DNA of 52,403 bases, the filler included, from Candidatus Zhuqueibacterota bacterium (GTDB lineage: Bacteria; BS750m-G25): assembly GCA_016783505.1 (NCBI GenBank). It is 4 parts of 4 records of this genome, joined end to end, with 100 filler letters (N's around TTAATTAATTAA, not from the genome) between each part and the next. Parts side by side here need not be neighbours in the genome. Positions count along the whole stretch, not along the records: positions 13,318 to 26,321 come from JADHWK010000061.1; 3 more parts are not named here. The stretch is one strand, 5' to 3'. Every line of letters begins with the position of its first letter. The stretch's first letter is position 1. Positions 7,446 to 39,469 of this stretch are shown one piece after another. Under the pieces are notes generated by a model. The model was not told the DNA's origin. It saw only the letters and a program-made list of their open reading frames with translations, and searched no databases. A program made the position numbers and the translations under genes.

Positions 7446-7521
7446 GCATAACGTGCCGCATAACCGGCTGGTAAAGTAGCGCAGCGGATTTACCAGTCCG
7501 AGTTAATGCGGTTGGTTAGGT
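7446..7521 (-). mobile_element. Integron attC site 2
   Basis: Minus strand ACCTAAC-CAACCGCATTAACTCGGACTGGTAAA ... TTTACCAGCCGGTTATGCGGCAC-GTTATGC; TAA stop of the upstream gene lies in the R'' box. Confidence 0.9.
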
Positions 7522-8649
7522 TTTGAGATCGTTTATCCATTGATTAAGAGAAATGTAATCCCTCAATTGCATTTGGTGTTTCACTTCTTGTTGGAATTCT
7601 TTAGCGCCTCTAGTAAAGCTTGAAGTTGTAGCTATGATGCCAGCAGTAGCTTTTTCTAATTGGACAATGCCATATAAAGATCTTACAACATCAACTTGGA
7701 CCTTGTTCGTCTTTGCGTACCTTTTACATTCCACAAGGAAAAGAAATCGACCAATCTCATCAGAACGAGCAGCGTATATATCAACACCACCATCTTTGGC
7801 TGGAGGTGTGAGGGTGATCTCATAACCAAGCTTATTAAGGAGTTCAGCCACCAGTCGTTCAAAATCCCTTGGGCTCAATGTGTACATTAGCTCTGGATTT
7901 TTCGTTACTTCACGGTAAAGCCTCTCCTCGAGATACTCAGACACCTCTACAATTGGTTTTGGCAGGGCAATAGATGGATCATATGGAACACCATCAGGGC
8001 CTATAATCCCTGGCTCTCTAAAAGGTTGAAGGTCTCTTATTAGCTCATTCCATGAAAGCAGACCTTCTCGAATCGTCGATGCACCCAACGATAGAAATAA
8101 AGGATGCCCTTTTACGTAATTGAAATATTTTTTTGCGGAATCTTCATTAATCAAGGCCAACCTTTTTCTCAAGAGCTCGTCCCATTCTGTATGAGAAAAA
8201 CCCTCAAGACGAACATTTACACTACCTAGCATTTGAACAGGGAGCTGAGTTTGAGAAACAATTATACAGTTTAAATTTATGTTAGCTGAAAGTTCATGAT
8301 TTAGTTGGTCAAATGCTTTTGGCTTTAGAAAGTGGGCCTCTTCTAAAACAAGCAAAGAGCGTTTTGTAGTGTCGAGTTTCCTTGTTTTGGGTAGATCATC
8401 TAAGACCGCACCCCAATGGGCATATGTAACCTCGATGCCCCCTGGAAAATCAGTTTCGTGCATACGCCAAAATTGATGAACAAGCGAGGTTTTGCCAATA
8501 CCAACTCTTCCGGTCACAATCACAACCTGAATGGTATCACTGAGCAGAGATTTTTCAAGGATACCAAGCTCTTTTGCCCTACCCACAAAAGTACTTTCAC
8601 TGGCTGGCACTGCCTCTGTTGCTGTAAGGTGTAAACGTTCAAATTGCAT
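7516..8649 (-). CDS. Gene cassette: P-loop (AAA/NB-ARC-like) ATPase fused to Mrr-like restriction endonuclease
   Basis: FVGR..EL, Walker A GRVGIGKT, LLVLEEAH; C-terminal FERLVAELL..GY, DGGVD, VECKRY, TTSSFT (Mrr_cat pattern). Confidence 0.85.
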   Translation of the reverse strand: MQFERLHLTATEAVPASESTFVGRAKELGILEKSLLSDTIQVVIVTGRVGIGKTSLVHQFWRMHETDFPGGIEVTYAHWGAVLDDLPKTRKLDTTKRSLLVLEEAHFLKPKAFDQLNHELSANINLNCIIVSQTQLPVQMLGSVNVRLEGFSHTEWDELLRKRLALINEDSAKKYFNYVKGHPLFLSLGASTIREGLLSWNELIRDLQPFREPGIIGPDGVPYDPSIALPKPIVEVSEYLEERLYREVTKNPELMYTLSPRDFERLVAELLNKLGYEITLTPPAKDGGVDIYAARSDEIGRFLFLVECKRYAKTNKVQVDVVRSLYGIVQLEKATAGIIATTSSFTRGAKEFQQEVKHQMQLRDYISLNQWINDLKT

Positions 8650-13217: not shown

Positions 13218-13317
13218 NNNNNNNNNNNNNNNNNNNNNNNNNNNNNNNNNNNNNNNNNNNNTTAATTAATTAANNNNNNNNNNNNNNNNNNNNNNNNNNN
13301 NNNNNNNNNNNNNNNNN
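13218..13317. other. Artificial contig linker
   Basis: N-run with TTAATTAATTAA (stops in all six frames). Confidence 0.98.
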
Positions 13318-13471
13318 GTTCGATGTTCATATTTTAAAGTTCGACGTTAATCTTTCCGCCAATAGATCCGCCAATAGATCTTGACTAATTAGCTGAATTC
13401 AGCTAATTTTCTCTAAATCTTCAAAATGAGGATGAATGCTGGTACCGAATGTCCTCCACCAACAACGTTTT

Positions 13472-13522
13472 TCCTCCCCCTCCCTTACCCTCCCCCTTGA
13501 GGGGGAGGGCAGGGTGGGGGTG
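13472..13522. repeat. Palindromic CCCTCCCCC/GGGGGAGGG intergenic repeat
   Basis: CCCTCCCCC-TTGA-GGGGGAGGG hairpin; near copy at 14223-14255. Confidence 0.65.
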
Positions 13523-13541
13523 ATAACTGGAGGGTGCGCAC

Positions 13542-13925
13542 ATGTCACCGAAGAAGACGCAAAAAGAGATAGATAGGCAGGATCAGATCATTGCCGAGGC
13601 TCGGCGTAACCAAGAACTTCGGGAGAAGACCTATCGGGAGCGAGCGCTCAAGATTTTCCCTGCAATCTGTGCGCGGTGCGGGCGTGAATTCATAGGCAAA
13701 AGACTTCGTGAGCTCACGGTCCATCACAAGGATCACAATCACGATAATAATCCGCCTGACGGAAGCAACTGGGAGTTGCTATGTATTTACTGTCACGATA
13801 ATGAGCATTCGCGATATCTGGATGCGGAATGGTATGAACCGGCGACACCGGGCGCCGAGCAAGAGCCAACTTCTACCTATAAGCCCTTCGCTGGCCTCGA
13901 GGCCTTATTGAAGGACAAAAAGTAG
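13542..13925 (+). CDS. yajD: YajD-family HNH nuclease
   Basis: YRERALK...CARCGREF...LTVHHKDHNHDNNPPDGSNWELLCIYCHDNEH. Confidence 0.85.
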   Translation: MSPKKTQKEIDRQDQIIAEARRNQELREKTYRERALKIFPAICARCGREFIGKRLRELTVHHKDHNHDNNPPDGSNWELLCIYCHDNEHSRYLDAEWYEPATPGAEQEPTSTYKPFAGLEALLKDKK

Positions 13926-14011
13926 CTGATCAATATTATTTCTCCCTTAGTACAATGTGGAAGGAAATCTCGACTCGGGGAAACGAGACTTTCTGAATTA
14001 AAGGTTAACAT

Positions 14012-14168
14012 GATGGGCTCGTAAAAAACCGAAAAACACCATTTTTTGTCATTCCGTCCCGGATCGTGGTCCGGGATGACGACCAAGCCGGAATCCAGTT
14101 TTTCAATTGATTACAAAGTTTCTGGACTCCGGTTTTCACCGGAGTGACGACTTTTTCCGAAACCGTCA
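14012..14168. repeat. Nested REP/RPE-like palindromic element
   Basis: GTCATTCCG..CCGGAATCCAG / CTGGACTCCGG..CCGGAGTGAC pair inside imperfect outer inverted repeats, with an inner TCCCGGA..TCCGGGA hairpin. Confidence 0.65.
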
Positions 14169-14222
14169 ACTTTAACAAAGATACATATCTTCTTGGGTTT
14201 TAACTTGATAATTCTCTATAAT

Positions 14223-14403
14223 CCTCCCCCTTGACGGGGGAGGTTAGGTGGGGGTGGTAAAATATTTGTTCACCCTCCCCTATATCCCCTCCTCTCCGAG
14301 GCGTAGGCTCTACCCTCCGGCCTGTAAGCCTCTCCGAGCTGTATGCTCTACGAGCAGGAAGCCTACGGGCTGGAAGCGGAGCCAGAGGCCATCAAGGGAG
14401 GGG
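14223..14403. repeat. Inverted pair of CCCTCCCC repeats with nested insert
   Basis: CCTCCCCCTTGACGGGGGAGG..GGGGGTG / CACCCTCCCC..TCAAGGGAGGGG with internal GTAGGCT/AGCCTAC palindromes. Confidence 0.55.
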
Positions 14404-14465
14404 CAGTTGATATTGGATAACCTGTCCCGCTGCTTTAGCGGGACTGCAGGAAGGTTCATTGAATT

Positions 14466-15908
14466 ATGAAAGAACGATGGTCAAAACCGAATGGATACCG
14501 CCAGGTCCTATCCATCAGCCTCCCTCTGGTGGCTTCCATGGGCTCGATAACTCTGATGCAATTCACCGATCGGATTTTTCTGGCAAATTACTCTGTCGAC
14601 GCAATTTCAGCCGCACTACCGGCAGGCATCGTCTGTTTCACCTTCATCGCCTTTTTTATGGGTGTTGCCAGTTATACAAATGCCTTTGTGGCGCAATATA
14701 CCGGGGCTCAAGCCCTCAACCGGGTGGGCGCCGCCATCTGGCAGGGTATATATTTCTCCCTTTTGTCCGCCGTTCTGCTGGCCTTGCTCTACTTCATCGC
14801 CGACATCCTGTTCGACCTCATCGGCCACTCGCCTCCCATACGGTCACTGGAGGTGACCTATTTCAAAATCCTCACCTTAGGAGCTGGATTGGTCGTGCTG
14901 AGCTCGGCAATGGCCGCTTTTTACACGGGTCGTGGGCTGACCTGGACGGTGATGCTGGTCCACATGGCGGGTACGGCGATCAACATCCCTTTGGACTTCT
15001 GCCTGATCAACGGCTTTGGTCCTTTTCCAGAACTCGGTATTGTGGGGGCGGGCATAGCCACGGTAACAGCCTACTGTATCATCGTGGCTATTCTGAGCAT
15101 CCTGATTTTCAGGCGTGCCAATCGAGAAAAGTTCGGCACCTGGAAAAACAGGGCCTTCGATAAGAAGCTGTTCCGAAGACTGATGCGGTATGGTTTGCCC
15201 AGCGGTATCCAGTTCTTTCTGGAGATTTTTGGGTTTACCTTCTTTATCCAGATGTTAGGACGGCTGGGCGATCTGGAATTGGCCACCTCCAACATTGTAC
15301 TCTCAATCGAGACGTTAGCGTTTCTTCCCATGGTCGGCTTTCATATCGGTAATGCTACACTTGTTGGCCAGGCAATTGGAAGAGGTCAACCTGAAGCTGG
15401 GGTATATTCGACCACGAGCGCGCTGCACATAACCTTAGCCTATATGTTGTTGTTGGCGGCTATATTCGTCATTGTGCCAGAACCACTTCTTTATCTTTTC
15501 AAGGGCAATCACTATGACTCTACACACTATGCCGAAATCATGGATTTAGGTGTGATACTGATGCGGTTTGTGGCCGTATTCTGCTTTTTTGATGCCCTTA
15601 ACCTTATTTACTCAGGGGCCATTAAGGGGGCGGGCGACACCCGGTTCATCATGTGGACCATCGCGGCGCTCTCCATCGGGGTGATGATCGCTCCGGTCTA
15701 CGTCGCCATAGAGTTACTCGGCGCCGGGCTCTATACGGCCTGGACCATAGCTACGCTCTACGTCTGTGCACTGGGTATAGCCTTTATGCTGCGCTACCGC
15801 CAGGGCAAGTGGAAGAAAATGCGGGTCATCGAGGATCAGCCGATTGTGGCCCAGGCCAGAGGCATAGGTGCAGAAGTTTTGGGTGGAGGATTAAAAAGCT
15901 CCAATTAG
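14466..15908 (+). CDS. MATE family efflux transporter
   Basis: ~12 TM helices; DRIFLA, VAQYTGA, VGQAIGRG, GAIKGAGDT motifs. Confidence 0.9.
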   Translation: MKERWSKPNGYRQVLSISLPLVASMGSITLMQFTDRIFLANYSVDAISAALPAGIVCFTFIAFFMGVASYTNAFVAQYTGAQALNRVGAAIWQGIYFSLLSAVLLALLYFIADILFDLIGHSPPIRSLEVTYFKILTLGAGLVVLSSAMAAFYTGRGLTWTVMLVHMAGTAINIPLDFCLINGFGPFPELGIVGAGIATVTAYCIIVAILSILIFRRANREKFGTWKNRAFDKKLFRRLMRYGLPSGIQFFLEIFGFTFFIQMLGRLGDLELATSNIVLSIETLAFLPMVGFHIGNATLVGQAIGRGQPEAGVYSTTSALHITLAYMLLLAAIFVIVPEPLLYLFKGNHYDSTHYAEIMDLGVILMRFVAVFCFFDALNLIYSGAIKGAGDTRFIMWTIAALSIGVMIAPVYVAIELLGAGLYTAWTIATLYVCALGIAFMLRYRQGKWKKMRVIEDQPIVAQARGIGAEVLGGGLKSSN

Positions 15909-16352
15909 CATTTTTTCATTATCAGAACTCACCCTCCTCCAAATGAGATATCTGGCAAGCTATCACTGAATCTTGGTCATTTTAAACTCAGTTGGGCCCT
16001 GTCATCAATTCTAACCCGCAAATCTAGACATATCCCTTTCATCTCCCCTATCACAACGACCTGAATGATATAGTCTTAGACATCTCCGGACCAGCTTAAC
16101 CAATGTGGAATGTGGTTTATTGGATTCTGAGCAGGTTGGTGAGGAATAGATTGGAGAAGGTAAAATCGATCTGAGATGATTATCAAATATTTTTCAATTT
16201 ATTTCGTCAAAATATGACGAAGTTTGCTTTTAATCTCAAATAGTTGAGCTGATCCCAAAATAATTATTTCATATTTTTTCATTAAGTGTTAGGATAAATA
16301 ATTCATATTATTTCCCCTTAAAATATGGTCATAAACAGTTTTAAAGGCAAAA

Positions 16353-17381
16353 ATGAATAGCATAGCTGATGAATTAAATATTGAGAATGAATTTTATTTC
16401 CAATGGCATATCACGGAAAAATGCAATCTTAGGTGTAAACACTGTTATCACTCCAATTATACCTCTGCTAATGAATTGAATTTAAATGAATTAATTCTTA
16501 TTGCCGATAAGATTAACTCCACGCTAAGGAAATGGAACAAGGACGGTACGCTTTCCATTACCGGGGGAGAGCCTTTTATGGTTATGGACAAGCTCTTTCC
16601 CCTTTTGCAGCACATTAATTCCCTCGAAACCATCAGCCATTTCGATCTCTTAACTAATGGATCTCTATTTAATGAAGGCATTCTGTCGGAGCTAAAGAAA
16701 TTTAAAAAATTGAGACGGGTTCAAGTCTCTTTGGAGGCGGGAAATCAGAAACTGAATGACCAAATAAGAGGCAATGGTAGTTTTGGAAAAACTTTATCTG
16801 CAATTAGGCTGTTGAAACAGAATGGTTTTCAAGTTGCAGTGATGATGACCCTCAGTCATATGAATAAAAAAGAAGTTGAGCCGCTTATTGAGCTTCTTAA
16901 AAAAGAGGGAGTTAATACCTTTTCTGCCGAACGATTTATTCCCGAGGGGGCTGGAGCCGATCTTAAAGACGAGTTTCTTACCGCCGACGAGGTAAAGGAA
17001 GTATTTCAAAAGATCTATTCCGTGGCAATGAAAGAGGATAAAATAAGGATTTTATTATACCGGCCTCTATTTGCCCTCCTTAACGGTAATGATCCAACTG
17101 TGGGTGCCTTGTGCTCAGTCGGTAATAATGCTCTCACTATCATGCATGACGGGACTATTTACCCTTGCCGGCGACTACCTATCCCCATCGGAAACGCCCT
17201 AACCGACAACTTTTACAAGGTGTGGTACACATCCGAGGTTTTGTGGAATGTCAGAAACCTGAAAAATATTAAAGGAAAATGCACTGACTGTGATCTTATA
17301 CCGGTATGCCGGGGCTGCCGTGCCATGGCCTATGCCCTAACCGGCGATTACCTTGCTGAGGATCCACAATGCTGGAGATAA
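16353..17381 (+). CDS. Radical SAM/SPASM peptide maturase
   Basis: CNLRCKHC (CxxxCxxC), ITGGEP; SPASM C..G..YPC..CxxC.....C.GC..DPQC. Confidence 0.92.
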   Translation: MNSIADELNIENEFYFQWHITEKCNLRCKHCYHSNYTSANELNLNELILIADKINSTLRKWNKDGTLSITGGEPFMVMDKLFPLLQHINSLETISHFDLLTNGSLFNEGILSELKKFKKLRRVQVSLEAGNQKLNDQIRGNGSFGKTLSAIRLLKQNGFQVAVMMTLSHMNKKEVEPLIELLKKEGVNTFSAERFIPEGAGADLKDEFLTADEVKEVFQKIYSVAMKEDKIRILLYRPLFALLNGNDPTVGALCSVGNNALTIMHDGTIYPCRRLPIPIGNALTDNFYKVWYTSEVLWNVRNLKNIKGKCTDCDLIPVCRGCRAMAYALTGDYLAEDPQCWR

Positions 17382-17674
17382 AACAGAACGATACTTTTGT
17401 ATTAGAAGAAAATATCTTTCTTCAAAAGATTAGCGAACTTGGAAAATACTGGGTTTTTAATATTGATACAGGTGAACATTATACGCTTAACGAGACTTCT
17501 TATTGGATATTGGAACAGATAGCTGAGAATTTACCGGCAAAAAATATTTTAAAGGATTTTCTGGAAAACTTTGATGTGGACGAAAATCAGGCCAAGGTTG
17601 ATTTTGGAGAAATATTAACTGGCTTCCTAAAGGAAGGGATTATCAAAAGGAGGGTGAAAGATGAAAAAATATAA
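17369..17674 (+). CDS. PqqD-family RiPP recognition element (RRE)
   Basis: 101 aa; YTLNETSYWILE...FDVD..AKVD...L..F.KEGII pattern; overlaps the rSAM stop. Confidence 0.88.
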   Translation: MLEIKQNDTFVLEENIFLQKISELGKYWVFNIDTGEHYTLNETSYWILEQIAENLPAKNILKDFLENFDVDENQAKVDFGEILTGFLKEGIIKRRVKDEKI

Positions 17675-17801
17675 AAAAAGAGCTTATGAAAAACCCATCC
17701 TAAAAAAAGAAAATACTATGAATTTTCCAATTGAGATTATCAACTCTTCAGGCAAGAGGATCGTTTGCAGGCAGTGTTCCGGTTGTCATGGCTGTAGATG
17801 A
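17661..17801 (+). CDS. Putative RiPP precursor peptide, 46 aa (MKKYKKRAYEKPILKKENTMNFPIEIINSSGKRIVCRQCSGCHGCR)
   Basis: Not in the ORF track; AGGAGG RBS; overlaps RRE stop; YxxPxL leader motif; CxxCxxCxxC core. Confidence 0.88.
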   Translation: MKKYKKRAYEKPILKKENTMNFPIEIINSSGKRIVCRQCSGCHGCR

Positions 17802-17843
17802 TCATGAATTCTTACTTCTATTGAAATGTAGGGCTTATAAAAA

Positions 17844-18557
17844 ATGAAGGACTGCCAAAATTTTCAAATCCAAGGCAAACGCCGAACTTGCAATATATGG
17901 CTGTACCCTGAAGATAATCTTCAACTAAAAAATCTCAACATTGATCCCTTTGACATCATTATCTGTGACGGCCCCTATGGCATTTTGGAAACGGAATGCG
18001 AGTGGGATGATTTTGACCTGAATAGCAAAAATGGCCGTGAAAAATTCCGACAATACTACAGAAACCTCTTTGACGCCTGCCTGAAGCACCTAAAAAAAAC
18101 CGGTTCTATCTTCATCTTCAATTATCCCGAAGGTGCCAGTCTTATCAAATCAGTGCTCGACGAGGAATACCCGGTTCATTTCAGACGCTGGATCACCTGG
18201 GTCTACGATAATCATTTTGACTTTGACCGCGGCGCCAATTTCCGACGCTCCCATGAGACAATTCTCTACTACACAAAGGAACCCGATGGCTTCATCTTTA
18301 AAGGAGCAGATATTCCAGATGTTTTCTTACATCCCATCATTAAAATTAGATCCAATTCTTTCAAAGACGGTGAAAAGCCTCTACCGGTCATCAGGGACCT
18401 ATTAAATGCCACATTTGTCCCTGAAGGAAGGTTGCTCAGCTTGTTCACCGGCTCAGGAACTGACATAGTGGCTGCTTTGGAGTACGATATGGATGTGGTG
18501 GGTTTCGAATTCAATGTGTCCAATTTCAATATGTTAGTTGAACGAATTAAAAATTAA
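17844..18557 (+). CDS. Short beta-class N6-A/N4-C methyltransferase-like protein
   Basis: Motif IV DGPY (DPPY variant) precedes motif I LFTGSGT; HETILYYTK, EKP. Confidence 0.8.
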   Translation: MKDCQNFQIQGKRRTCNIWLYPEDNLQLKNLNIDPFDIIICDGPYGILETECEWDDFDLNSKNGREKFRQYYRNLFDACLKHLKKTGSIFIFNYPEGASLIKSVLDEEYPVHFRRWITWVYDNHFDFDRGANFRRSHETILYYTKEPDGFIFKGADIPDVFLHPIIKIRSNSFKDGEKPLPVIRDLLNATFVPEGRLLSLFTGSGTDIVAALEYDMDVVGFEFNVSNFNMLVERIKN

Positions 18558-18614
18558 AAGGTTCTTAGTTCCAATGCCTATAAACTCCCAAAAGTATGAG
18601 GAGGGAACATAACC

Positions 18615-21600
18615 ATGATGTGTAGGAAAAAAGAAGAGCTTTTTGCTTTTGAAAGTGCATCTATTGAACTCGATATTGCAATTGATGAGCAAGACGAAAA
18701 AAAGTGTAATCGCATTGTTTCCATTCAGAAAGGAGATATTGCTGCTATTAAAGACGCAAAGAACCCAAAACGATTTCGGGAAGCATTAATCAGAAAAGAA
18801 GGCCTACTTCCAATAAATGTTAATGGAAAGAAGTGTTCCATTGATTTTTGGCATGTTTATTTCCTTGCCAAAAGAATTCGTGGAATACTTCAGAATGAAA
18901 ATACTGACAGCCAATCAAAAAAACTTGACTGGGTTGTAGATATATTAATCAGGGAAGCTACATCTAAAATCCCCGATGATGAACAGTTTCAATACCTTCT
19001 GCTTATGCTTGAATTGGCTGCATGTACTATGGGCGAACAATCCCTGGGCTATGCTGAAAAGGCTCGAATAATTCTTGATGACATTAAAAAAAATACGCCC
19101 CCCTTTCTTGCCAATTGGAGTGATGAAGCCTATGAGGCTCTCATTCACTATAACCAAGGTGTTGCCAAACAACACATGGCTTTGCACGATAAGGCACTGA
19201 ATGAGTATGACCAATCTATTAAAAAAATTCATAAAGTTAAAAATCTTATAGATAAATCATGGTTAACCTACGTATACCATCCCGCAATCCTCCAGAAAGC
19301 GGAGGTTCTTATCAAGATGCAGTTTTCTTATAATGCACTGACGGCGCTAAAAAAAATAGATAATGATAGTTCAAGTATTTTTCATCGACGACGACGCGAA
19401 CTTCTCAAATTAACATGCTATATTGATCTATCAGATTGGGACCGATTTGATTCACACTGGAAAGACACGATAGACTGTGAAAAGAAACAATCTGTTTTTT
19501 GTGAAAACAGCAATTCCATTTTTCAAACACCCATTCCCCGACAAAAGGATATTTTAAATTATCTGGACGCTAAAAAACCTCAACGATCCGTTAACAGAAT
19601 CCCTTTTTCTTTGAGTTCTCAATATAACGCCCATGTACTGGATCGCGCGAAAGAACAATTAGCGCAGAAAGTTAAAGACATTGAAAATGAAAAAAATGTA
19701 GAAAAGAAGGGTAAGAAAATTAGAGAAATAAAGGATTATAAAATCTTTTCATTTCTTAAAGACTACATTAAGCAATGTGAGCATAATAGATTTGAGAAGC
19801 TGACGCTCGAAGAAGCGATCCTGGATTATATTGAAATCGTTGGTAGGCTGATTACGAAAGATAAGGGATTTACAAAATCTCCAGATGATTCCTGTAGAGA
19901 TGGACTAGAGGAATTAGTAAGTATTTTAAAAAACAATTCATTTATAAATGAGATAGATTCATTAGACAAGCCATTGGTGCAAAGTGAAACAGTTCAAAAA
20001 GCAAGAAAAGTTTCAGAAGAGATCAATGATTCATTCCTGAAGAAATGGTTCTGCGAAAAAGAAGATGGATTTGATGATTCACTTCCCGAGGACGTAAAAA
20101 TATTTTTTAACTTTGAGAAAGAACTTATCGAAAAACTGATATTCTTGGAGAAACGGACAGATTTACTGCAAAGGATGTATGATAAAAGATCTTTGCAAGA
20201 GCGCGAAATGCTTCTCTCTACAATTTCTAAAAATAAATTTTGTACGAAAAATATTGAAGAATTAAAAACAAAGCTGATAATTTATAAAGATGCTAAAATT
20301 CATGATAACCAAACTAATTGCCTTCAAGAAATTATAAAAGCCATAGACGGCAAACATCCCATTGCCAAGGATTTATTTACGTTGAAGTTCGGAGACTATG
20401 ATAATGTTTTGAAACGGGAGGAACGAAAGTTTCAGAAACACACTACGGGGCGAAGCATCCAACCTCTGCCGGTAAGAGAAGAAAGTAAAAAAGAAAAGTC
20501 GCCAAGTGTCAATTATGTGGGGCTGCGTCGCTGGAACTCCTACACTCCGGAGCTTTCATTTTCCGTGGGTGGAGGCCACTTTGTGTTCCTGTCGGAGGGG
20601 GAAAAAAACAATAAGGGTAAAGTCGGTATTGGCATAGCTGTGGACCCAGGTTTTGATTTCATACGCAATTTTTTTCGCCAAGGTTTTACGCTTACCGATA
20701 TTGATGTCATTCTTCTTACCCATGGTCATCCTGATCACATAAGGGATTTCCCCGCCGTCGTTGAATTGTTGCATGAAAATAAAAAACGCGGAAACGGCCA
20801 GGAAAAGAAAATATATGCCGTTATGAGCCTTGGCTGTTATGAAAGGCTCGATGATTATATTGTAAGGGATCCTTTTAAACTCCTCTTTTATGATACCATC
20901 ATCGTAGACATTGATCAGGGAAGAGAAAATATACAAGACAAAGAGATATGTTTCACATACGACTCGGGAAATAAGGATCATCAAGTAAAACTGATACCTC
21001 CTCAGCCAGACTCGCCCCCAAACGGGGGCAAGAAAATTAGCATACAGTATTTCCCAGCATTCCATACTGACCACAGCGAATCAGATAGCTATGGTTACAT
21101 CATAAAATTAAAGGGCGGTGATGTATCAATCGGATTTACGGGCGACTCAAAGTGGTTTTATGGATACGCCAAAAAATTTGAGAAATGTGACATGATCTGC
21201 TCGCATATCGGATCAATAGCAGAGCCCAAAAAGGATAAGCGACTCAAGGACTATACGACGGTTGGCAAGGTCGAAAGGCTCATGAGGACGAAAGGCCACC
21301 CCTATCTGTTCGGAGAAATTCTCTTTTGGCAGGATTGGCTGAAAATATTCAAAGAGAACGGGAAAAAGACCTTAATGCTCATGTCAGAATTTGGCGAGGA
21401 GATGAAGGGGAAAATCCGGTTCGATCTGGCACAGAGGTTTAATATGCCAGCAAATGGAGGATGTTGTTGGACCGGTTTCGAGCCAGAGCCAAAGAGCGAT
21501 TGGAACTGTAAGTATTATGAGCATTGCAAAGAAGGGGCAAAAAACATGATGGTCATTCCCGTCGACGTGGGGCTTCGAATCAGCATTCCCCTCGGAAAAG

Positions 21601-21830
21601 GAGATGGTCAAAATGAGCAGAGTAACGGTTCTCATCCCCATAGGATACATTGTGTTGTGTGTGACGATTTTGTCGCCCCCGATGAGATCGATTATGAGGT
21701 ATACAGCCACGAAGAAGCAATTTTCTATATCTGCAAAACTTGTCTCCGTTCTACATCCTTTGATGTAAGGCACTCGATATATCAAAAGTATCATGAGAAT
21801 GGCCGTGAGATAGAGAAAGATGACTTATAG
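18615..21830 (+). CDS. Large TPR-like/helical + metallo-beta-lactamase-fold hydrolase + C-terminal Zn-finger protein
   Basis: LRRWNSYTP, VDPGFDF, THGHPDH (HxHxDH), FH.D, FTGDS, SEFGEE; CVVC...CKTC. Confidence 0.8.
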   Translation: MMCRKKEELFAFESASIELDIAIDEQDEKKCNRIVSIQKGDIAAIKDAKNPKRFREALIRKEGLLPINVNGKKCSIDFWHVYFLAKRIRGILQNENTDSQSKKLDWVVDILIREATSKIPDDEQFQYLLLMLELAACTMGEQSLGYAEKARIILDDIKKNTPPFLANWSDEAYEALIHYNQGVAKQHMALHDKALNEYDQSIKKIHKVKNLIDKSWLTYVYHPAILQKAEVLIKMQFSYNALTALKKIDNDSSSIFHRRRRELLKLTCYIDLSDWDRFDSHWKDTIDCEKKQSVFCENSNSIFQTPIPRQKDILNYLDAKKPQRSVNRIPFSLSSQYNAHVLDRAKEQLAQKVKDIENEKNVEKKGKKIREIKDYKIFSFLKDYIKQCEHNRFEKLTLEEAILDYIEIVGRLITKDKGFTKSPDDSCRDGLEELVSILKNNSFINEIDSLDKPLVQSETVQKARKVSEEINDSFLKKWFCEKEDGFDDSLPEDVKIFFNFEKELIEKLIFLEKRTDLLQRMYDKRSLQEREMLLSTISKNKFCTKNIEELKTKLIIYKDAKIHDNQTNCLQEIIKAIDGKHPIAKDLFTLKFGDYDNVLKREERKFQKHTTGRSIQPLPVREESKKEKSPSVNYVGLRRWNSYTPELSFSVGGGHFVFLSEGEKNNKGKVGIGIAVDPGFDFIRNFFRQGFTLTDIDVILLTHGHPDHIRDFPAVVELLHENKKRGNGQEKKIYAVMSLGCYERLDDYIVRDPFKLLFYDTIIVDIDQGRENIQDKEICFTYDSGNKDHQVKLIPPQPDSPPNGGKKISIQYFPAFHTDHSESDSYGYIIKLKGGDVSIGFTGDSKWFYGYAKKFEKCDMICSHIGSIAEPKKDKRLKDYTTVGKVERLMRTKGHPYLFGEILFWQDWLKIFKENGKKTLMLMSEFGEEMKGKIRFDLAQRFNMPANGGCCWTGFEPEPKSDWNCKYYEHCKEGAKNMMVIPVDVGLRISIPLGKGDGQNEQSNGSHPHRIHCVVCDDFVAPDEIDYEVYSHEEAIFYICKTCLRSTSFDVRHSIYQKYHENGREIEKDDL

Positions 21831-22620
21831 AGAACCCAATCTGGCCGCTGCCGCTATCGGGCTTATTCGCGCAGTTAATGATTCTCTTGAACTTGGGAGA
21901 AGGGCAATCCCCTCTTATGTTTTGAGCTATGAAGGTCTAACTTCATCTCTTGTAGCTGATGAAGAACTCCGCCAAACTCAGAAGGATGATGGGGGCTGGA
22001 ATAATGTTCGTGACACGGCACTGCTTGCGGCACTATGTCACCTTCGCAGATCACTCCAGGACTGTTACCAGTCTGCTCTTTCCTGGCTTACAGAAGTCCG
22101 AAAAGACAATGGGGAGTGGGGTTTAACTGAACGTGATACGAGCCGCATCCCAGTTACTGGGCTTTTGCTTTATCTCCTCCCCGAACTTTCCGACCAAAAG
22201 GTGGTAAACTGGCTCAAAAATGAATGGAGGAAGGATTTTGAGGGTGCCACCAGACTTACTTACAAGGGGGCCTTCTTCTTGTTAGGATTGTCCGCGTCAA
22301 GGGTAGCCATTGATGATTGCCCGTTGATTGAGGAAACTTACTCTTTCCTGCATGCTGAACAAAACCAAGACGGCGGGTTTGGGCCTTGGAAGGACCATCC
22401 CATTGGGAGTGAACCCTGGTCAACCGGAATTGTGCTGCTCGGTTTGGTTTCTTATCCTGATCTGACAGATCGAAGCGTTATAGAAAGGGCCGTCAACTGG
22501 CTGGCTGAGAATCAATTGCCCAATGGCTTGTGGGCCTATCACTATATTGAAGAAGGCTCTGCCTATGCATACTGGGGATTGGTGGAAGCATTAAAATATT
22601 TATCGAAAGAGTCAAACTGA
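21820..22620 (+). CDS. Prenyltransferase/squalene-cyclase repeat (alpha/alpha toroid) protein
   Basis: QW-like repeats QKDDGGW, RKDNGEW, QNQDGGF, QLPNGLW. Confidence 0.8.
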   Translation: MTYREPNLAAAAIGLIRAVNDSLELGRRAIPSYVLSYEGLTSSLVADEELRQTQKDDGGWNNVRDTALLAALCHLRRSLQDCYQSALSWLTEVRKDNGEWGLTERDTSRIPVTGLLLYLLPELSDQKVVNWLKNEWRKDFEGATRLTYKGAFFLLGLSASRVAIDDCPLIEETYSFLHAEQNQDGGFGPWKDHPIGSEPWSTGIVLLGLVSYPDLTDRSVIERAVNWLAENQLPNGLWAYHYIEEGSAYAYWGLVEALKYLSKESN

Positions 22621-24434
22621 TGTGTGGAATTTGTGGAATATATAACGAAAAGAACTTAAGCACAGTAACCGCCATGCTTGAATCTATTCACCATCGTGGG
22701 CCTGACTCTTTTAGGACTATGCTATTTGGAAAACACTCTCTGGGAGAATGCGGGCTAAATATTGTTAGAAGTAAAGACGATACGTTACCTTTGATAGATG
22801 AGGAAAATGAGATAGCCCTGCTTTTTAATGGGGAGATTTACAATTATCAAGAGATCAAAGATGAACTAGTAAAGGAAGGATATATTTTCACTTCCAATAC
22901 AGACTCAGAAGTGATTATCCCTCTTTATAGAAAATACGGGAAGGATTTCGTGAAGCATCTGAAGGGGATGTTTGCAATTGTCATTATAGATAAAGAGCAG
23001 ATTATCCTGGCCCGTGATAAGTTCGGTATTAAGCCCCTTTATTATTATCAGATAGGTGACAGGCTTATCTTTGGTTCCGAGATAAAGGCCTTGCTCCAGT
23101 ATCCTGATGTTCCGGCTGACCTGGACCTGGAATCATTAAAAGAGCTAATGGTCTTCGGGTACATCTTTTCTCCTGACCGAACGCTGCTGAAAGATATTTA
23201 CCAGGTTTCTCCCGGATCGGTTGTTATTTTTGGTGGGAATAGGATTTCGGAACACAAATATTATCAAATCCCCACTCCCTTTTATCAGGATAACGGGAAT
23301 ATCGTCTATGAAGATTCTATCCTCCAATTGACAGCGAGTTTGCTAAAGACTTTTGAATTATTCCATGATCACGGGGATCAGGAAAAGGGCATATATCTGT
23401 CAGGTGGTCTGGATTCCACACTAATGGCGGTTCTGTCGAAGGAAGTTATAAACAAGCCCATCCACACTTACACCCTGTATGATTCCGAAGATGCCCCGGA
23501 TTTTAATTATGCCCGGAGAGCCGCAAGGGCTATAGGGTCCAAGCATCATGAATTTCTCGTCACGCCTGAAGATTACTTTAAAGAACTACCCCATTTTGTG
23601 TATCACTATGAAAATCTCATCGCAGGTGGCGTATTTGATATTCAGGGCGGTATAGCCTTTCAGATTCTCTCAGAGCATATTTCTGACTTTCACAAGGTGG
23701 CCTTTACCGGTGAAGGGGCAGATGAACTCTTTGGAGGGTATTACTGGATTTATACCCATCCATTGGGTTTCTCCGACAGAATCAGAGAAAGGGCCTCTAA
23801 GCTTCCTGCCTATTCCAGAGTAAGGAAGGTCGTCCAGGATATTTTCCCCCCACCTGAGGACGAAGCAACCTATAGGAAGAATCTGTTCCATATACTTATG
23901 GGAGCAGGTCTTGCAAATTACCATTTATGGAGTGTGGACAGGTCCTGTGGTTCCTTTGGATTCGAAGCAAGGCCTCCTTACCTATATGATGATCTTGCCG
24001 AATATGCCCTGTCACTTCCTATTGACTTCAAGGTCTCTGGTAAATCGATCACCAAGAAGATACTTAAAGACGTGGCGCAGCCTTTTTTCAGGAAACATGG
24101 CTTGGAAGAAATTTTAACAAGAAAAAAATACGGAATGCCTGCTGCCATTGACGGTATAAGCCCCAAAATAAGACGACAGATCAATAATCTCGTCCCGTAC
24201 GAAACTATTGAGCAACACCCTTTCAGGGATTACATCAAAGACGCTGTGGATGTCTTAATGTTTGACCTGTTTTATTACTTCGTAATCCAAAAGCGGGGAA
24301 AGTTCGAGACCGGATTTTCAATAGATGAGTTTTATAAAGGTCGCATAAATGAAGATATGTATGATCAGCAAATATCCGCCCATTCAGGGGGGAATTTCCG
24401 CCAAGACCTACTGGTTGGCACAGGGCCTTGCTGA
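22620..24434 (+). CDS. Asparagine synthetase B-family amidotransferase
   Basis: MCGICG (Cys1 nucleophile), HRGPD, FNGEIYN, ARDKFGIKPLYY, LSGGLDS, TGEGADELFGGY. Confidence 0.9.
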   Translation: MCGICGIYNEKNLSTVTAMLESIHHRGPDSFRTMLFGKHSLGECGLNIVRSKDDTLPLIDEENEIALLFNGEIYNYQEIKDELVKEGYIFTSNTDSEVIIPLYRKYGKDFVKHLKGMFAIVIIDKEQIILARDKFGIKPLYYYQIGDRLIFGSEIKALLQYPDVPADLDLESLKELMVFGYIFSPDRTLLKDIYQVSPGSVVIFGGNRISEHKYYQIPTPFYQDNGNIVYEDSILQLTASLLKTFELFHDHGDQEKGIYLSGGLDSTLMAVLSKEVINKPIHTYTLYDSEDAPDFNYARRAARAIGSKHHEFLVTPEDYFKELPHFVYHYENLIAGGVFDIQGGIAFQILSEHISDFHKVAFTGEGADELFGGYYWIYTHPLGFSDRIRERASKLPAYSRVRKVVQDIFPPPEDEATYRKNLFHILMGAGLANYHLWSVDRSCGSFGFEARPPYLYDDLAEYALSLPIDFKVSGKSITKKILKDVAQPFFRKHGLEEILTRKKYGMPAAIDGISPKIRRQINNLVPYETIEQHPFRDYIKDAVDVLMFDLFYYFVIQKRGKFETGFSIDEFYKGRINEDMYDQQISAHSGGNFRQDLLVGTGPC

Positions 24435-25464
24435 AAGAGGTATTGAGACCCATGTAGTCACCAACGGAAATTGTGTAGAGAGCGAATATCGTATTGAGGA
24501 TACCTCTCCTAAACCGCATCCTAACCTGCATATCCATTTCATAGATCCTGACCTCCCATGGCATATCCCTTATTCTGACTTGTATGTCCCAAGGTTATTG
24601 GACAAGGCCCTTCAAGTAACCCGCGAAAACCAAGTTGCTCTCATAGACACAGGATACCTCATCCCGTATGGAATCGTGGGATATCTCCTTTCTGAGATGA
24701 CAGGAATCCCCTATGTCTTGCGGCATGGCGGCAGTGACCTCGAGAAGTTCTTCCGACAGGGAGTATTTAGTGATCTTCTGAAAAAGGTGATTCAAAGCGC
24801 GGCGGCCATCATCACCGATAGGCACAACAAGGAGGTCTTTCAGAGTCTCAATTCGCGCCTGTACATAGTGCCCAGGTATATCCCCGACGAGAGATATTTC
24901 AGGCCTTCCATATCACCACATGACACGCCAACCTTCGCCTATATAGGGAAGATTAACTATCACTGGAGGCATAAAAGCCTACACAGAATTGCGGAAATAT
25001 TTGATGGGCTTAAAAGGGACTACCGCTTGATTTTTGTTGGTCAAGGCAAGGGATTCGAGGACTTTTCGGAATTCGTTTCGGGATATGGCCTGAGGGGATT
25101 TGAGTTTCGCCAATTCGTCCATCCTGCGAATATGCCTGGTTTGCTCAATGAGATAGATTTCCTGATTTGCTTTACAAAAGACAACCCCATCAAAGACTTT
25201 ATGAATATTTTCTCCGAAGCCCTGTGGTCGGGAGTCCGGGTGCTCACTGATGATACAATGGATTTGGACACCTATACGGAACATATTGAACTGGCTGATC
25301 AGGCTCAGATAGTCAATCTGCCCATAGATGATGTTGGAGCGACACAATCCAAAATCATTGATATGATAAGAGACTGGGACGGGCCATCTCGATACAACAA
25401 CAAATTGAAATACGACTTCAATAGATATTTGGACGCAAATTTGGAGATATATCATCGGATTTGA
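24349..25464 (+). CDS. GT-B (GT4-like) glycosyltransferase
   Basis: MKICMISKYPPIQGG...LAERG..THVVT, HGGSDL, EALWSG. Confidence 0.82.
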   Translation: MKICMISKYPPIQGGISAKTYWLAQGLAERGIETHVVTNGNCVESEYRIEDTSPKPHPNLHIHFIDPDLPWHIPYSDLYVPRLLDKALQVTRENQVALIDTGYLIPYGIVGYLLSEMTGIPYVLRHGGSDLEKFFRQGVFSDLLKKVIQSAAAIITDRHNKEVFQSLNSRLYIVPRYIPDERYFRPSISPHDTPTFAYIGKINYHWRHKSLHRIAEIFDGLKRDYRLIFVGQGKGFEDFSEFVSGYGLRGFEFRQFVHPANMPGLLNEIDFLICFTKDNPIKDFMNIFSEALWSGVRVLTDDTMDLDTYTEHIELADQAQIVNLPIDDVGATQSKIIDMIRDWDGPSRYNNKLKYDFNRYLDANLEIYHRI

Positions 25465-25476
25465 ACAAACTTGGTG

Positions 25477-25986
25477 ATGAAAATTCTTATAACGGGCATC
25501 GGCAATATCGGGAAAAGCACCCTAAGGGAGATGGTGGCTCACAAATTCCCCGATCGGGTTATTCAAATAGATATGGACTACCATTCCCATGAGGACATCC
25601 CGGAATCCTCTGACAAGGTTATACTGGTTGAAGACGTGCATGGTCTGGAAAGGAATCCTGAGCAATATGACAAAATAATTTATCTTATGCCACCGTCAAA
25701 TCACTTCATCTTGTGGCTGAAGAGGGCTTGGGCATGGTTTTCCGGTGGAATAGTTGATTTATCTGCCCCAAAAGGTATTAATAAGCACTGTGCATTTTCC
25801 AACATCCCGATAATTGTGAAGATAGTGTTGAGGAATATCGTGTCGGCCAGGCGATGGGTCCTGGGCGATATGGAGACCATAAAGAGGAAATTCGAGGACA
25901 AAACCGTCATAGTTGATACTGTATCTGACGGCTTTCAGGAAATTGGAAAATTACTTTCACGAAATGGGAGTGAGGAAATTATATGA
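25477..25986 (+). CDS. P-loop nucleotide-kinase-like protein
   Basis: MKILITGIGNIGKST Walker A at N-terminus. Confidence 0.72.
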   Translation: MKILITGIGNIGKSTLREMVAHKFPDRVIQIDMDYHSHEDIPESSDKVILVEDVHGLERNPEQYDKIIYLMPPSNHFILWLKRAWAWFSGGIVDLSAPKGINKHCAFSNIPIIVKIVLRNIVSARRWVLGDMETIKRKFEDKTVIVDTVSDGFQEIGKLLSRNGSEEII

Positions 25987-26058
25987 AAAGCCGCTGAATT
26001 GAATTTCAGATTTTAGATTGAACGCCATTTACAATAAAGCTGAAAGGAAACTGGAGAT

Positions 26059-26184
26059 ATGGCCCGAAAGAAAAAAGGAAATGAAGCAAAGGTCGAGGAT
26101 TACAGGCATGGGGATGCAAAACGGAAGAACATTCCTCCGGTTGGATTGGCTGCCTGTTGCCACACTCCTGAGGTGGCCAAATAG
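26059..26184 (+). pseudogene. Truncated N-terminus of a Mod-type DNA methyltransferase
   Basis: MARKKKGNEAKVEDYRHGDAKRKNIPPVGLA.. stops after 41 codons; GGAG RBS; DYRH..KRKNIPP.GLA resembles Mod-type N-termini (recalled, not searched). Confidence 0.5.
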
Positions 26185-26321
26185 AGGTTTTTTTCTAATC
26201 TGTAAGGCGGTCATTACCCAATTTTGATATAGCCGCAAAAAGGCACAAAATACACAAAAATAATAATTTACATATTGGAATATCAAATAGTTATGGGCGT
26301 CAAAAATACAAATTTGGACTT

Positions 26322-26421
26322 NNNNNNNNNNNNNNNNNNNNNNNNNNNNNNNNNNNNNNNNNNNNTTAATTAATTAANNNNNNNNNNNNNNNNNNNNNNN
26401 NNNNNNNNNNNNNNNNNNNNN
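26322..26421. other. Artificial contig linker
   Basis: N-run with TTAATTAATTAA. Confidence 0.98.
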
Positions 26422-39369: not shown

Positions 39370-39469
39370 NNNNNNNNNNNNNNNNNNNNNNNNNNNNNNN
39401 NNNNNNNNNNNNNTTAATTAATTAANNNNNNNNNNNNNNNNNNNNNNNNNNNNNNNNNNNNNNNNNNNN
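39370..39469. other. Artificial contig linker
   Basis: N-run with TTAATTAATTAA. Confidence 0.98.

Follow-up and report, generated by a model that had tools for sequence, protein, structure and literature searches.

The short open reading frame studied here is confirmed as a real, conserved gene, beyond what chance would give, and at the least it appears to define an unnamed class of radical SAM RiPPs common to bacteria and archaea. Its 46-residue product may be the precursor of a new radical SAM RiPP that controls an anti-phage or anti-parasite effector, with the matured form inhibiting the effector and phages resupplying the precursor; this reading is put forward as a serious possibility that falls somewhat short of being probable. 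The gene content, neighbourhoods and viral copies make it fairly probable that the operon as a whole acts in virus-host conflict. The initial annotation had left out the other operon genes, the defence setting and the copies carried by phages, and it is these that hold the greatest interest. The window, the whole stretch of 52,403 nucleotides that was analysed, consists of four contigs (C77-C80) separated by N-linker-N spacers at 13218-13317, 26322-26421 and 39370-39469, and genes on opposite sides of a spacer are not neighbours. The peptide locus lies on contig C78 (window 13318-26321).

The peptide gene is located at 17661..17801 on the + strand, and its translation gives exactly the 46 residues and stop that had been quoted, a leader followed by the C-terminal core CRQCSGCHGCR. 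The strong AGGAGG ribosome-binding site claimed within the RRE gene was found at 17648..17653 (+), 7 nt before the ATG, and the peptide ORF overlaps this PqqD gene (17369-17674) by 14 nt. All four Cys residues fall in the last 11 residues at exact 3-residue spacing, as described (C36, C39, C42 and C45, then R46 and the stop), in a core (C36-R46, 17766..17798, +) that also contains the near-invariant Q38, S40 and H43. The leader carries Y9-x-x-P12 and M20-x-F22-P23 (17685..17729, +), which are invariant or nearly so in family alignments and form the predicted RRE recognition sequence. The YxxPxL pattern assigned to the leader is present as Y9-E-K-P12-I-L14, but the Leu is not fixed across the family, whose consensus has I, F, L or M at that position (Y-x-x-P-x-(I/F/L/M)) and continues with another motif, which most members have as M-x-F-P. 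The peptide was rightly called unannotated, in that no Pfam or NCBIfam model names it, and the PADLOC models likewise give it no name. A search of the ESM Atlas returned unnamed clusters only, one of them labelled viral, and no significant match was obtained against cultured phage records (best E 0.2). A reverse-strand reading of the same stretch is ruled out by stops, and a scan for promoters and terminators stayed at chance level (11 found, 7.9 +/- 3.1 expected).

Conservation of the peptide was followed at several distances. It is the sole ORF ending in CxxCxxCxxC in a six-frame scan of the 2.5-Mb assembly, it has 26 close homologues at 72-89% identity, and its relatives at E<=1e-3 comprise 236 representatives of 50% clusters. 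Among the best 150 of these 236 representatives, 146 have the CxxCxxCxxC terminus, and within the 146 Q38 is kept in 143, H43 in 143, S40 in 139 and G44 in 117. All four Cys, the Gln, the Ser and the His are present in 38 of 38 distinct peptides from loci that were found with the toroid gene of the operon as query, and YxxP in 45 of 46 toroid-found peptides. The core pattern CxQCSxCHxC is nearly invariant while codon use at the invariant residues is free, and because all of their codons are used, selection acts on the protein. The core Cys codons are all TGT or TGC in the peptides recovered.

Directly upstream are a radical SAM/SPASM maturase (16353..17381, +; Pfam PF04055 and PF13186, both above cut-off) and a stand-alone PqqD/RRE protein (17369..17674, +; PF05402, 37.5 bits, cut-off 23.4). 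The maturase has a CX3CX2C motif (C24/C28/C31) and seven SPASM Cys residues (254, 272, 310, 313, 319, 322 and 340), all ten of which are invariant in its alignment. The second SPASM Cys is absent when the protein is aligned to anSME, which suggests that one auxiliary-cluster site is left open. Its closest solved relatives are SkfB, anSME and 5WGG. The best NCBIfam matches are both under cut-off, TIGR04340 (ACGX) with 198 of 400 bits and TIGR04082 (SbtM) with 164 of 350, and the maturase reaches the cut-off of no named NCBIfam family, scoring 84/340 bits for PapB, 82/625 for StsB, 67/850 for AlbA, 65/600 for CefB, 100/265 for MftC and 69/381 for PqqE. The closest solved structures to the RRE are the lasso B1 proteins TbiB1 and TfuB1, and it scores below the cut-offs of the lasso PqqD models. 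YxxPxL had been described as the RRE-binding motif of lasso-type leaders; lasso RREs do use it, but a motif of the YxxP type is common to lasso, PQQ and sactipeptide RREs (parts of PMC12710340). A model of the RRE-peptide complex weakly supports binding; it scored 0.48, with 0.00 for the best control, a partner pLDDT of 51-53 and runs that agree in at least 82% of contacts. Of the solved pairs, 116 of 157 reach the mark used for such scores, as do 2 of 215 mismatched pairs; scores up to 0.60 at that mark came from 18 of the 157 solved pairs and both mismatches. Like complexes have already been solved, and a score of 0.48 is wrong more often than right if the pair is not likely beforehand.

The pairing of peptide, RRE and maturase was also followed at other loci. 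The independent linkage test used the toroid as a metagenome query (331 relatives, 80 kept), and peptide, RRE and radical SAM were all present in 28 of the 29 toroid-found loci with at least 5 kb upstream; the single exception is interrupted by a transposase-like gene. A comparable short ORF is thus what was sought and found beside orthologous radical SAM/RRE pairs, and gene context gives good support to the proposal that the peptide is the precursor of the adjacent pair. At >=400 bits, the RRE and the peptide were present beside 4 of 4 radical SAM homologues examined (3 already in the locus set), and none of 29 weaker sister enzymes (275-368 bits) had an RRE or peptide within 1.5 kb; these 29 were the weaker matches fetched, with 14 further weak matches left out. 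The RRE and the peptide are confined to one radical SAM clade. The sister clade of stand-alone SPASM radical SAMs is common (L192-L218, L146 and L147, 275-368 bits, RRE and peptide absent nearby). Taken from this context, maturation of the peptide by the radical SAM enzyme is very probable. Cys-to-carbon thioethers are a plausible outcome, and the seven-Cys SPASM domain and invariant core Cys residues are compatible with, and not diagnostic of, such cross-links; a thiooxazole of the SbtM type is a live alternative as the product.

The order of the operon in the window is radical SAM, RRE, peptide, DNA-methylase-like protein, MBL protein, toroid, AsnB-like ligase, GT4 and P-loop protein. The N6/N4 DNA-methylase-like gene (17844..18557, +; PF01555) is an accessory of one clade only, present in 5 of 80 genome loci and in some metagenome loci. 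It is followed by a 1071-residue MBL-fold hydrolase (18615..21830, +; PF12706), the putative effector, whose role is suggested by its context. This protein has a helical N-terminal region, an intact HxHxDH site (H703-H708, H817, D844 and H895) and a C-terminal CxxC/CxxC; likeness to TPR proteins is weak (one of the matches comes from a homologue). It is the least conserved part of the operon, with a median identity of 0.23 versus 0.49 for the radical SAM. The next gene encodes a single-domain (alpha/alpha)6 toroid (21820..22620, +) that is terpene-cyclase-like and tightly linked to the peptide. Its model (pLDDT 95) has squalene-hopene cyclase as best match (Z 24.8, rmsd 2.5, 252 aligned), which places the predicted fold closest to the class II terpene cyclases. 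R105, Y148, K149 and H241 are invariant; conserved Cys residues are absent. Given this absence and the lower rank of protein prenyltransferases (Z 18.0 vs 24.8 for terpene cyclases), there is no sign of a farnesyltransferase or of a LanC-type zinc site in the toroid.

Three further genes complete the operon. An asparagine-synthase-like, ATP-dependent amide ligase (22620..24434, +) scores 335 bits with TIGR01536, above the cut-off of 267, and 135 bits with the lasso cyclase model NF033535, for which the cut-off is 525; its SGGxDS loop is kept and the glutaminase domain is missing in many loci. The GT4 glycosyltransferase (24349..25464, +) has BshA-type proteins as nearest solved relatives, with profile matches to 2JJM (E 4e-18) and 5D00 (E 1e-15). 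The small P-loop kinase-like protein (25471..25986, +) is a frequent accessory and is fused to the MBL protein in locus L300. An upstream MATE transporter gene (14466-15908, +) was rejected as a member of the operon, as its family lies beside just 2 of 81 loci and its GC is higher. Short GC-rich palindromic repeats (poly-C, ttga, poly-G) were seen by eye at about 13475-13525 and 14220-14290, flanking a YajD HNH gene.

A scan of 185,579 species genomes with the peptide gave 88 relatives, of which 80 were kept, and 53 of the 80 loci have operon genes. The hosts include Desulfobacterota, Chloroflexota, Actinomycetota, Bacteroidota, Bacillota, Bathyarchaeia, Methanoperedens, Thermoplasmatota and others. 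Where the flank is long enough, the toroid is present in 36 of 37 genome loci, the ligase in 34 and the large hydrolase in 35, a co-occurrence that is partly circular because the loci were defined by having an operon gene. Among toroid-found loci with enough flank, the ligase follows in 52 of 52 and the GT4 in 25 of 25. Leader identity covaries with the RRE, the radical SAM and the toroid (Spearman 0.52, 0.57 and 0.42 over 35 loci), as expected of a unit that moves together, and kinship alone would also give this. The operon is conserved and moves as a unit. Its spread is rare, patchy and cross-domain, in bacteria and archaea; an orthologous maturase was found in just 3 of 401 sampled genomes of one phylum, and in the window the GC is 0.33-0.40 over 16.3-20.3 kb versus 0.46 for the genome. 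The toroid was not found in plasmids, and no exporter, dedicated protease, transporter or client enzyme is conserved among the operon neighbours.

The large hydrolase gene differs from locus to locus. Across the 53 system loci it is an MBL protein in 28, a REase-like+HD protein in 14 and a dGTPase-like HD protein in 4, with none seen in 7. The REase-like+HD protein has a restriction-endonuclease-like N-terminus by motifs and a C-terminus with an HD/PDEase fold, the HD fold being seen by structure (Z about 10, which is middling for a helical fold; rmsd 3.9-4.4; 155-175 aligned). No family library, PADLOC included, gives it a name, Foldseek returned no match at E<=0.001, and it has no profile similarity to the long HD or MBL proteins. 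The long HD protein matches a dGTPase model at E 3e-50. That the effector types are mutually exclusive is ruled out, as both are present in 4 of 80 metagenome loci and in L305. At L258:1814-7810 the order is peptide-HD-peptide-MBL in tandem, with each copy of the peptide directly before a different large hydrolase, which by analogy resembles an antitoxin-before-toxin layout.

Other variants of the operon have been observed. A distant one, L148:5128-13437 (G158:C1), contains an RRE, a peptide with the core CFGCTNCHGCN, a toroid and a radical SAM, together with a creatininase, a methyltransferase, an FAD oxidoreductase, a B12-radical SAM and a GNAT-amidohydrolase; a recognised effector is absent and, judged by its genes, this branch of the family may make a cofactor or a natural product. 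In a named Desulfovibrio isolate genome (L304) the effector is absent from the 13.5-kb contig. L304 is also among the expanded variants (with L301, L303 and L299) whose extra genes encode a second radical SAM, a B12-radical SAM, an AAA_33 kinase and a PHP protein. An Mrr-NACHT gene comes after one variant, and in two loci (L220:6793-8616 and L226:6716-8539) a 607-residue gene with no Pfam match lies between the toroid and the ligase.

The operon is enriched in defence islands. Flanking ORFs were compared with the PADLOC models at E<=1e-30, arbitrarily chosen stretches of the same genomes serving as controls, and 18 of 109 flank ORFs matched at 38 system loci versus 3 of 126 in 36 control stretches. 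Two ORFs of a near-duplicate locus had been left out before the scan. Generic UvrD and RtcR matches were removed from the count (2 from system loci and 1 from controls), leaving 16 ORFs in 11 of 38 loci versus 2 ORFs in 1 of 36 controls (Fisher p=0.003 by locus, where kin are not independent). The matches are restriction-modification, Septu, Hma, SoFic and DUF499-type genes. In 27 of the 38 system loci a defence match is absent from the short flank tested. Against PADLOC 2.0, the core operon genes matched no system-specific model; their generic matches are a viperin-type radical SAM, a type II methylase and, for the long HD gene, a dGTPase. On the other contigs of the window, 0 of 30 ORFs match PADLOC models at E<=1e-30. 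A defence-like gene is present on one of these contigs (7516-8649, -), encoding an AAA-ATPase fused to an Mrr-type restriction endonuclease domain.

The peptide is also carried by viruses. A scan of IMG/VR gave 59 viral loci with a full precursor, and the radical SAM, RRE, toroid and GT4 are absent from the flanks (up to 6 kb) of all 59. AsnB-like matches occur in the flanks of two. No radical SAM was found in the 50 whole viral records searched (50 of the 59), 7 of which are at least 90% complete, and the same radical SAM profile did find matches in the cellular genome searches. The toroid was not found in viral contigs. Because the first viral scan had used the core pattern, a leader-only scan was added, with DNA patterns in place of a leader-only protein alignment, which is too variable for a scan of loci. 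The intact four-Cys core was present in 30 of the 31 leader-only matches, and the remaining one is an unrelated longer ORF. In 30 of 59 viral loci (23 of 49 distinct peptides) the gene is within 2 kb of a same-strand terminase, portal or prohead gene, an enrichment that is overstated because IMG/VR favours such hallmark genes. Among the system peptides, 26 different ones are the nearest relatives of the 48 distinct viral leaders, with 7 at >=70% identity, and on a quick tree the viral peptides are scattered (34 changes for 49 rows vs a shuffled mean of 39), with at least 4 of the viral/cellular changes forced by starred branches on a tree of poor resolution (77 of its 123 inner branches are open). 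The variety of nearest relatives together with the scatter suggests repeated capture of the peptide by phages. In a 316-kb phage a short AsnB-like gene lies directly upstream of a tandem precursor pair (L123:4965-6117); tandem pairs of different precursor subtypes were also seen in two small archaeal genomes (L006:1666-2027 and L042:5914-6311).

The peptide occurs without the operon in cellular genomes as well. Such orphans make up 27 of the 80 loci, 19 in genomes of at most 1.2 Mb and 15 in named CPR or DPANN organisms; L016 is a contig-edge case, and at least one orphan sits in a prophage head module. An orthologous radical SAM was not found in the orphan assemblies, which are incomplete, the best match having 244 bits vs 577 for the enzyme of the window. 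The best four matches in the orphan CPR/DPANN genomes (178-244 bits) are other enzymes, with neither RRE nor peptide. Orphans in assemblies that lack the orthologous radical SAM suggest that the peptide may also act unmodified. All 28 cellular orphans retain YxxP, as do 45 of 49 viral copies. Several orphan neighbourhoods are worth recording. In three small genomes (L008:5986-7805, L042:5914-7882 and L049:1-2496) the orphan adjoins operon-type P-loop kinase-like and APH-like phosphotransferase genes, a group that is either a remnant or a separate mini-module. At L079:2265-6256 and in L080 the genes after it encode conserved proteins of roughly 403 and 563 residues with no Pfam match. In a small CPR-like genome (L141:3299-7133), a 56-residue ORF with a Cys-rich end lies shortly before the gene of another SPASM radical SAM, and a second radical SAM is encoded nearby; this group may belong to a different RiPP.

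A mechanism can be proposed that brings these features together. The RRE would bind the YxxP...MxFP leader and present the core to the SPASM enzyme, which is a probable first step. The open auxiliary-cluster site would then take a substrate thiol, and the enzyme would oxidise or cross-link the core Cys residues, most likely through thioethers from Cys to a carbon of Q38, S40 or H43, which are invariant and each lie four positions from a Cys. The toroid, the AsnB-like ligase and the GT4 may finish the product by C-terminal amidation or conjugation and by glycosylation, although the details of this step are speculative. Since no exporter or dedicated protease is conserved, the product is expected to stay inside the cell. 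The genomic layout suggests that the matured peptide, constantly made, keeps the co-encoded hydrolase inactive in the manner of an antitoxin or guard signal. Infection would halt peptide synthesis by the host, release the effector and abort the infection. The phage could counter this by expressing an intact precursor, often from a late packaging operon, which the host's own enzymes would mature. A phage gains from a processable precursor only if the product turns the defence off, which favours an inhibitory role for the matured peptide, and the retention of the core in viral copies disfavours a jamming decoy, since a decoy could do without it. The broader form of the proposal is a new class of immunity in which a radical-SAM-matured, amidated and glycosylated guard peptide keeps interchangeable toxic hydrolases in check; phages, and perhaps CPR/DPANN parasites, would evade this immunity with a 40-60-residue precursor alone while host enzymes make the off-signal. 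This broader form is held as a tentative idea, a shade less firmly than the control of an effector by the peptide. Against effector control stand the variants L148 and L304, in which no effector was seen, the chance that all the hydrolases serve one biosynthetic step, and the CPR/DPANN orphans, unless these parasites are targets of such a defence themselves or the peptide has a further role in its unmodified form.

The defence-island, effector-swap and viral-copy evidence applies equally if the matured peptide has the opposite sign, as an activating signal for the effector or as a directly antiviral product, the phage copy then being a competitor that swamps the RRE or the later enzymes, or a means of superinfection exclusion by prophages. 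Lanthipeptide clusters in defence islands do protect against phage, according to the abstract of 10.1101/2024.06.26.600839. However, a pure RRE decoy needs the leader alone, yet 30 of the 31 leader-only viral matches keep the full core, and a lytic phage should not provide the precursor of its own inhibitor; such a role is considered rather unlikely. About as unlikely, and marginally more so, is a RiPP with no part in defence, such as a cofactor, thiol or metallophore made from the peptide (of the mycofactocin, bacillithiol or thiooxazole kind), whose phage-borne precursor is an auxiliary gene. The hydrolases would be biosynthetic in that case, and the interchangeable metal hydrolases of MBL and HD types could all carry out one biosynthetic dephosphorylation step. 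The BshA-like GT4 fits this, as does L148 with its creatininase-family peptidase, tailoring enzymes and absent effector, and SbtM is the second-best NCBIfam match of the maturase (164 bits), with a Gly-Cys at G44-C45 of the core. It is at odds with the patchy distribution, with the enrichment of defence genes and with the absence of a conserved client enzyme or transporter among the neighbours; hydrolases of 600-1200 residues that diverge fast and have extra sensor-like domains are ill suited to a simple step, and the thiooxazole form is weakened by the variation of G44 (G in 117 of 146).

The peptide could instead serve, without modification, as a small protein with four Cys and a His that binds Zn or Fe-S; the radical SAM enzyme, with the peptide as its subunit, would then act on something else, perhaps a nucleotide. 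Orphans under purifying selection in small CPR/DPANN genomes and in phages that lack the enzymes are in keeping with this, as are the nucleotide-type neighbours (kinase, HD, PHP and DNA methylase). The RRE leader, though, is useless without an RRE and is nevertheless kept in the orphans (28 of 28 cellular and 45 of 49 viral), and the RRE and peptide are limited to one radical SAM clade, so that this role is judged improbable. A lasso peptide, with the YxxPxL leader and an AsnB-like cyclase, or a c-type heme peptide that uses the CxxCH motif at C39-H43, has been largely refuted and is very improbable. The RRE is indeed nearest to lasso B1 proteins, an AsnB-like gene is in the operon, and weak cytochrome c matches were obtained (best E 0.0067 among 27 members). 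The conserved neighbour families of the 80+80 loci include no B2 protease, the core and C-terminal region has no conserved Asp or Glu, the cyclase model gives 135 of 525 bits, and the aligned peptides lack a hydrophobic signal sequence.

The preferred reading, a matured peptide that restrains an effector, can be set beside known systems. By its genes the operon has the SPASM enzyme, RRE and leader/core precursor that mark the broad radical SAM RiPP class. The description of the peptide as lasso-like holds for the YxxP leader and the B1-like RRE and fails for the B2 protease, the acidic core residue and the lasso cyclase model; lasso peptides (TbiB1/TfuB1 RREs) share the YxxP leader, the discrete RRE and an AsnB-fold gene with this operon, which differs in having a radical SAM. 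Thioether radical SAM RiPPs, the ranthipeptides and sactipeptides (CteB 5WGG, SkfB 6EFN, PapB), are similar in that a single operon encodes a SPASM radical SAM with seven SPASM Cys, an RRE and a short precursor rich in Cys. In CteB the open auxiliary site binds a substrate Cys. Unlike these systems, the operon described here has a different core, no exporter, added toroid, AsnB-like, GT4 and hydrolase genes, and phage-borne precursors. The ACGX (TIGR04340) and SbtM (TIGR04082) systems provide the top two NCBIfam matches of the maturase. The ACGX repeat is absent here, and 27 peptide members match no such precursor model. SbtM modifies a Gly-Cys motif to a thiooxazole (-4 Da, 304 nm), and an open auxiliary site has been proposed for it (both from parts of PMC9204691). 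A Gly-Cys motif is present in the core of this peptide as in the thio(seleno)oxazole system, but here the core uses TGT/TGC codons for Cys. Mycofactocin and PQQ pathways also combine a peptide, a PqqD-type chaperone, a SPASM enzyme and a glycosyltransferase, and L148 adds a creatininase-family peptidase; the roles of MftE and MftF in mycofactocin lie behind the comparison of glycosyltransferase and peptidase. They differ in that the maturase falls below the MftC and PqqE models, a conserved redox client is absent and the context is one of defence.

In searches of the literature outside subscription journals and supplements, neither the operon nor the core motif nor the phage-borne precursors were found described; the RRE-Finder supplements, outside that coverage, may list this RRE. 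As the toroid, the AsnB-like ligase and the BshA-like GT4 were not found together in the literature searched, new peptide chemistry in the operon is likely. The nearest precedent in defence is provided by the lanthiphages, lanthipeptide clusters that occur in defence islands and are anti-phage (10.1101/2024.06.26.600839, abstract). Both are RiPP clusters enriched in defence islands, but the chemistry and hosts differ, and the abstract of that work contains neither a swappable toxic hydrolase nor a phage-encoded precursor. If the defence reading is true, an immune effector would be controlled by a RiPP, and a phage gene, in supplying the precursor, would hijack a biosynthetic pathway of the host. 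The defence reading would also give a function to small unannotated phage genes and to the orphan CPR/DPANN peptides, with a hint that hosts defend against cellular parasites too. Phage mimics of antitoxins are reportedly known for DarTG and abortive-infection systems. In Panoptes, as described in parts of PMC12657218, a constitutively made molecule holds the effector off. In Panoptes and the antitoxin-mimic systems the inhibitor is a cyclic nucleotide, a protein or an RNA, whereas the inhibitor proposed here would be a modified peptide, of which the phage gives the unprocessed precursor.
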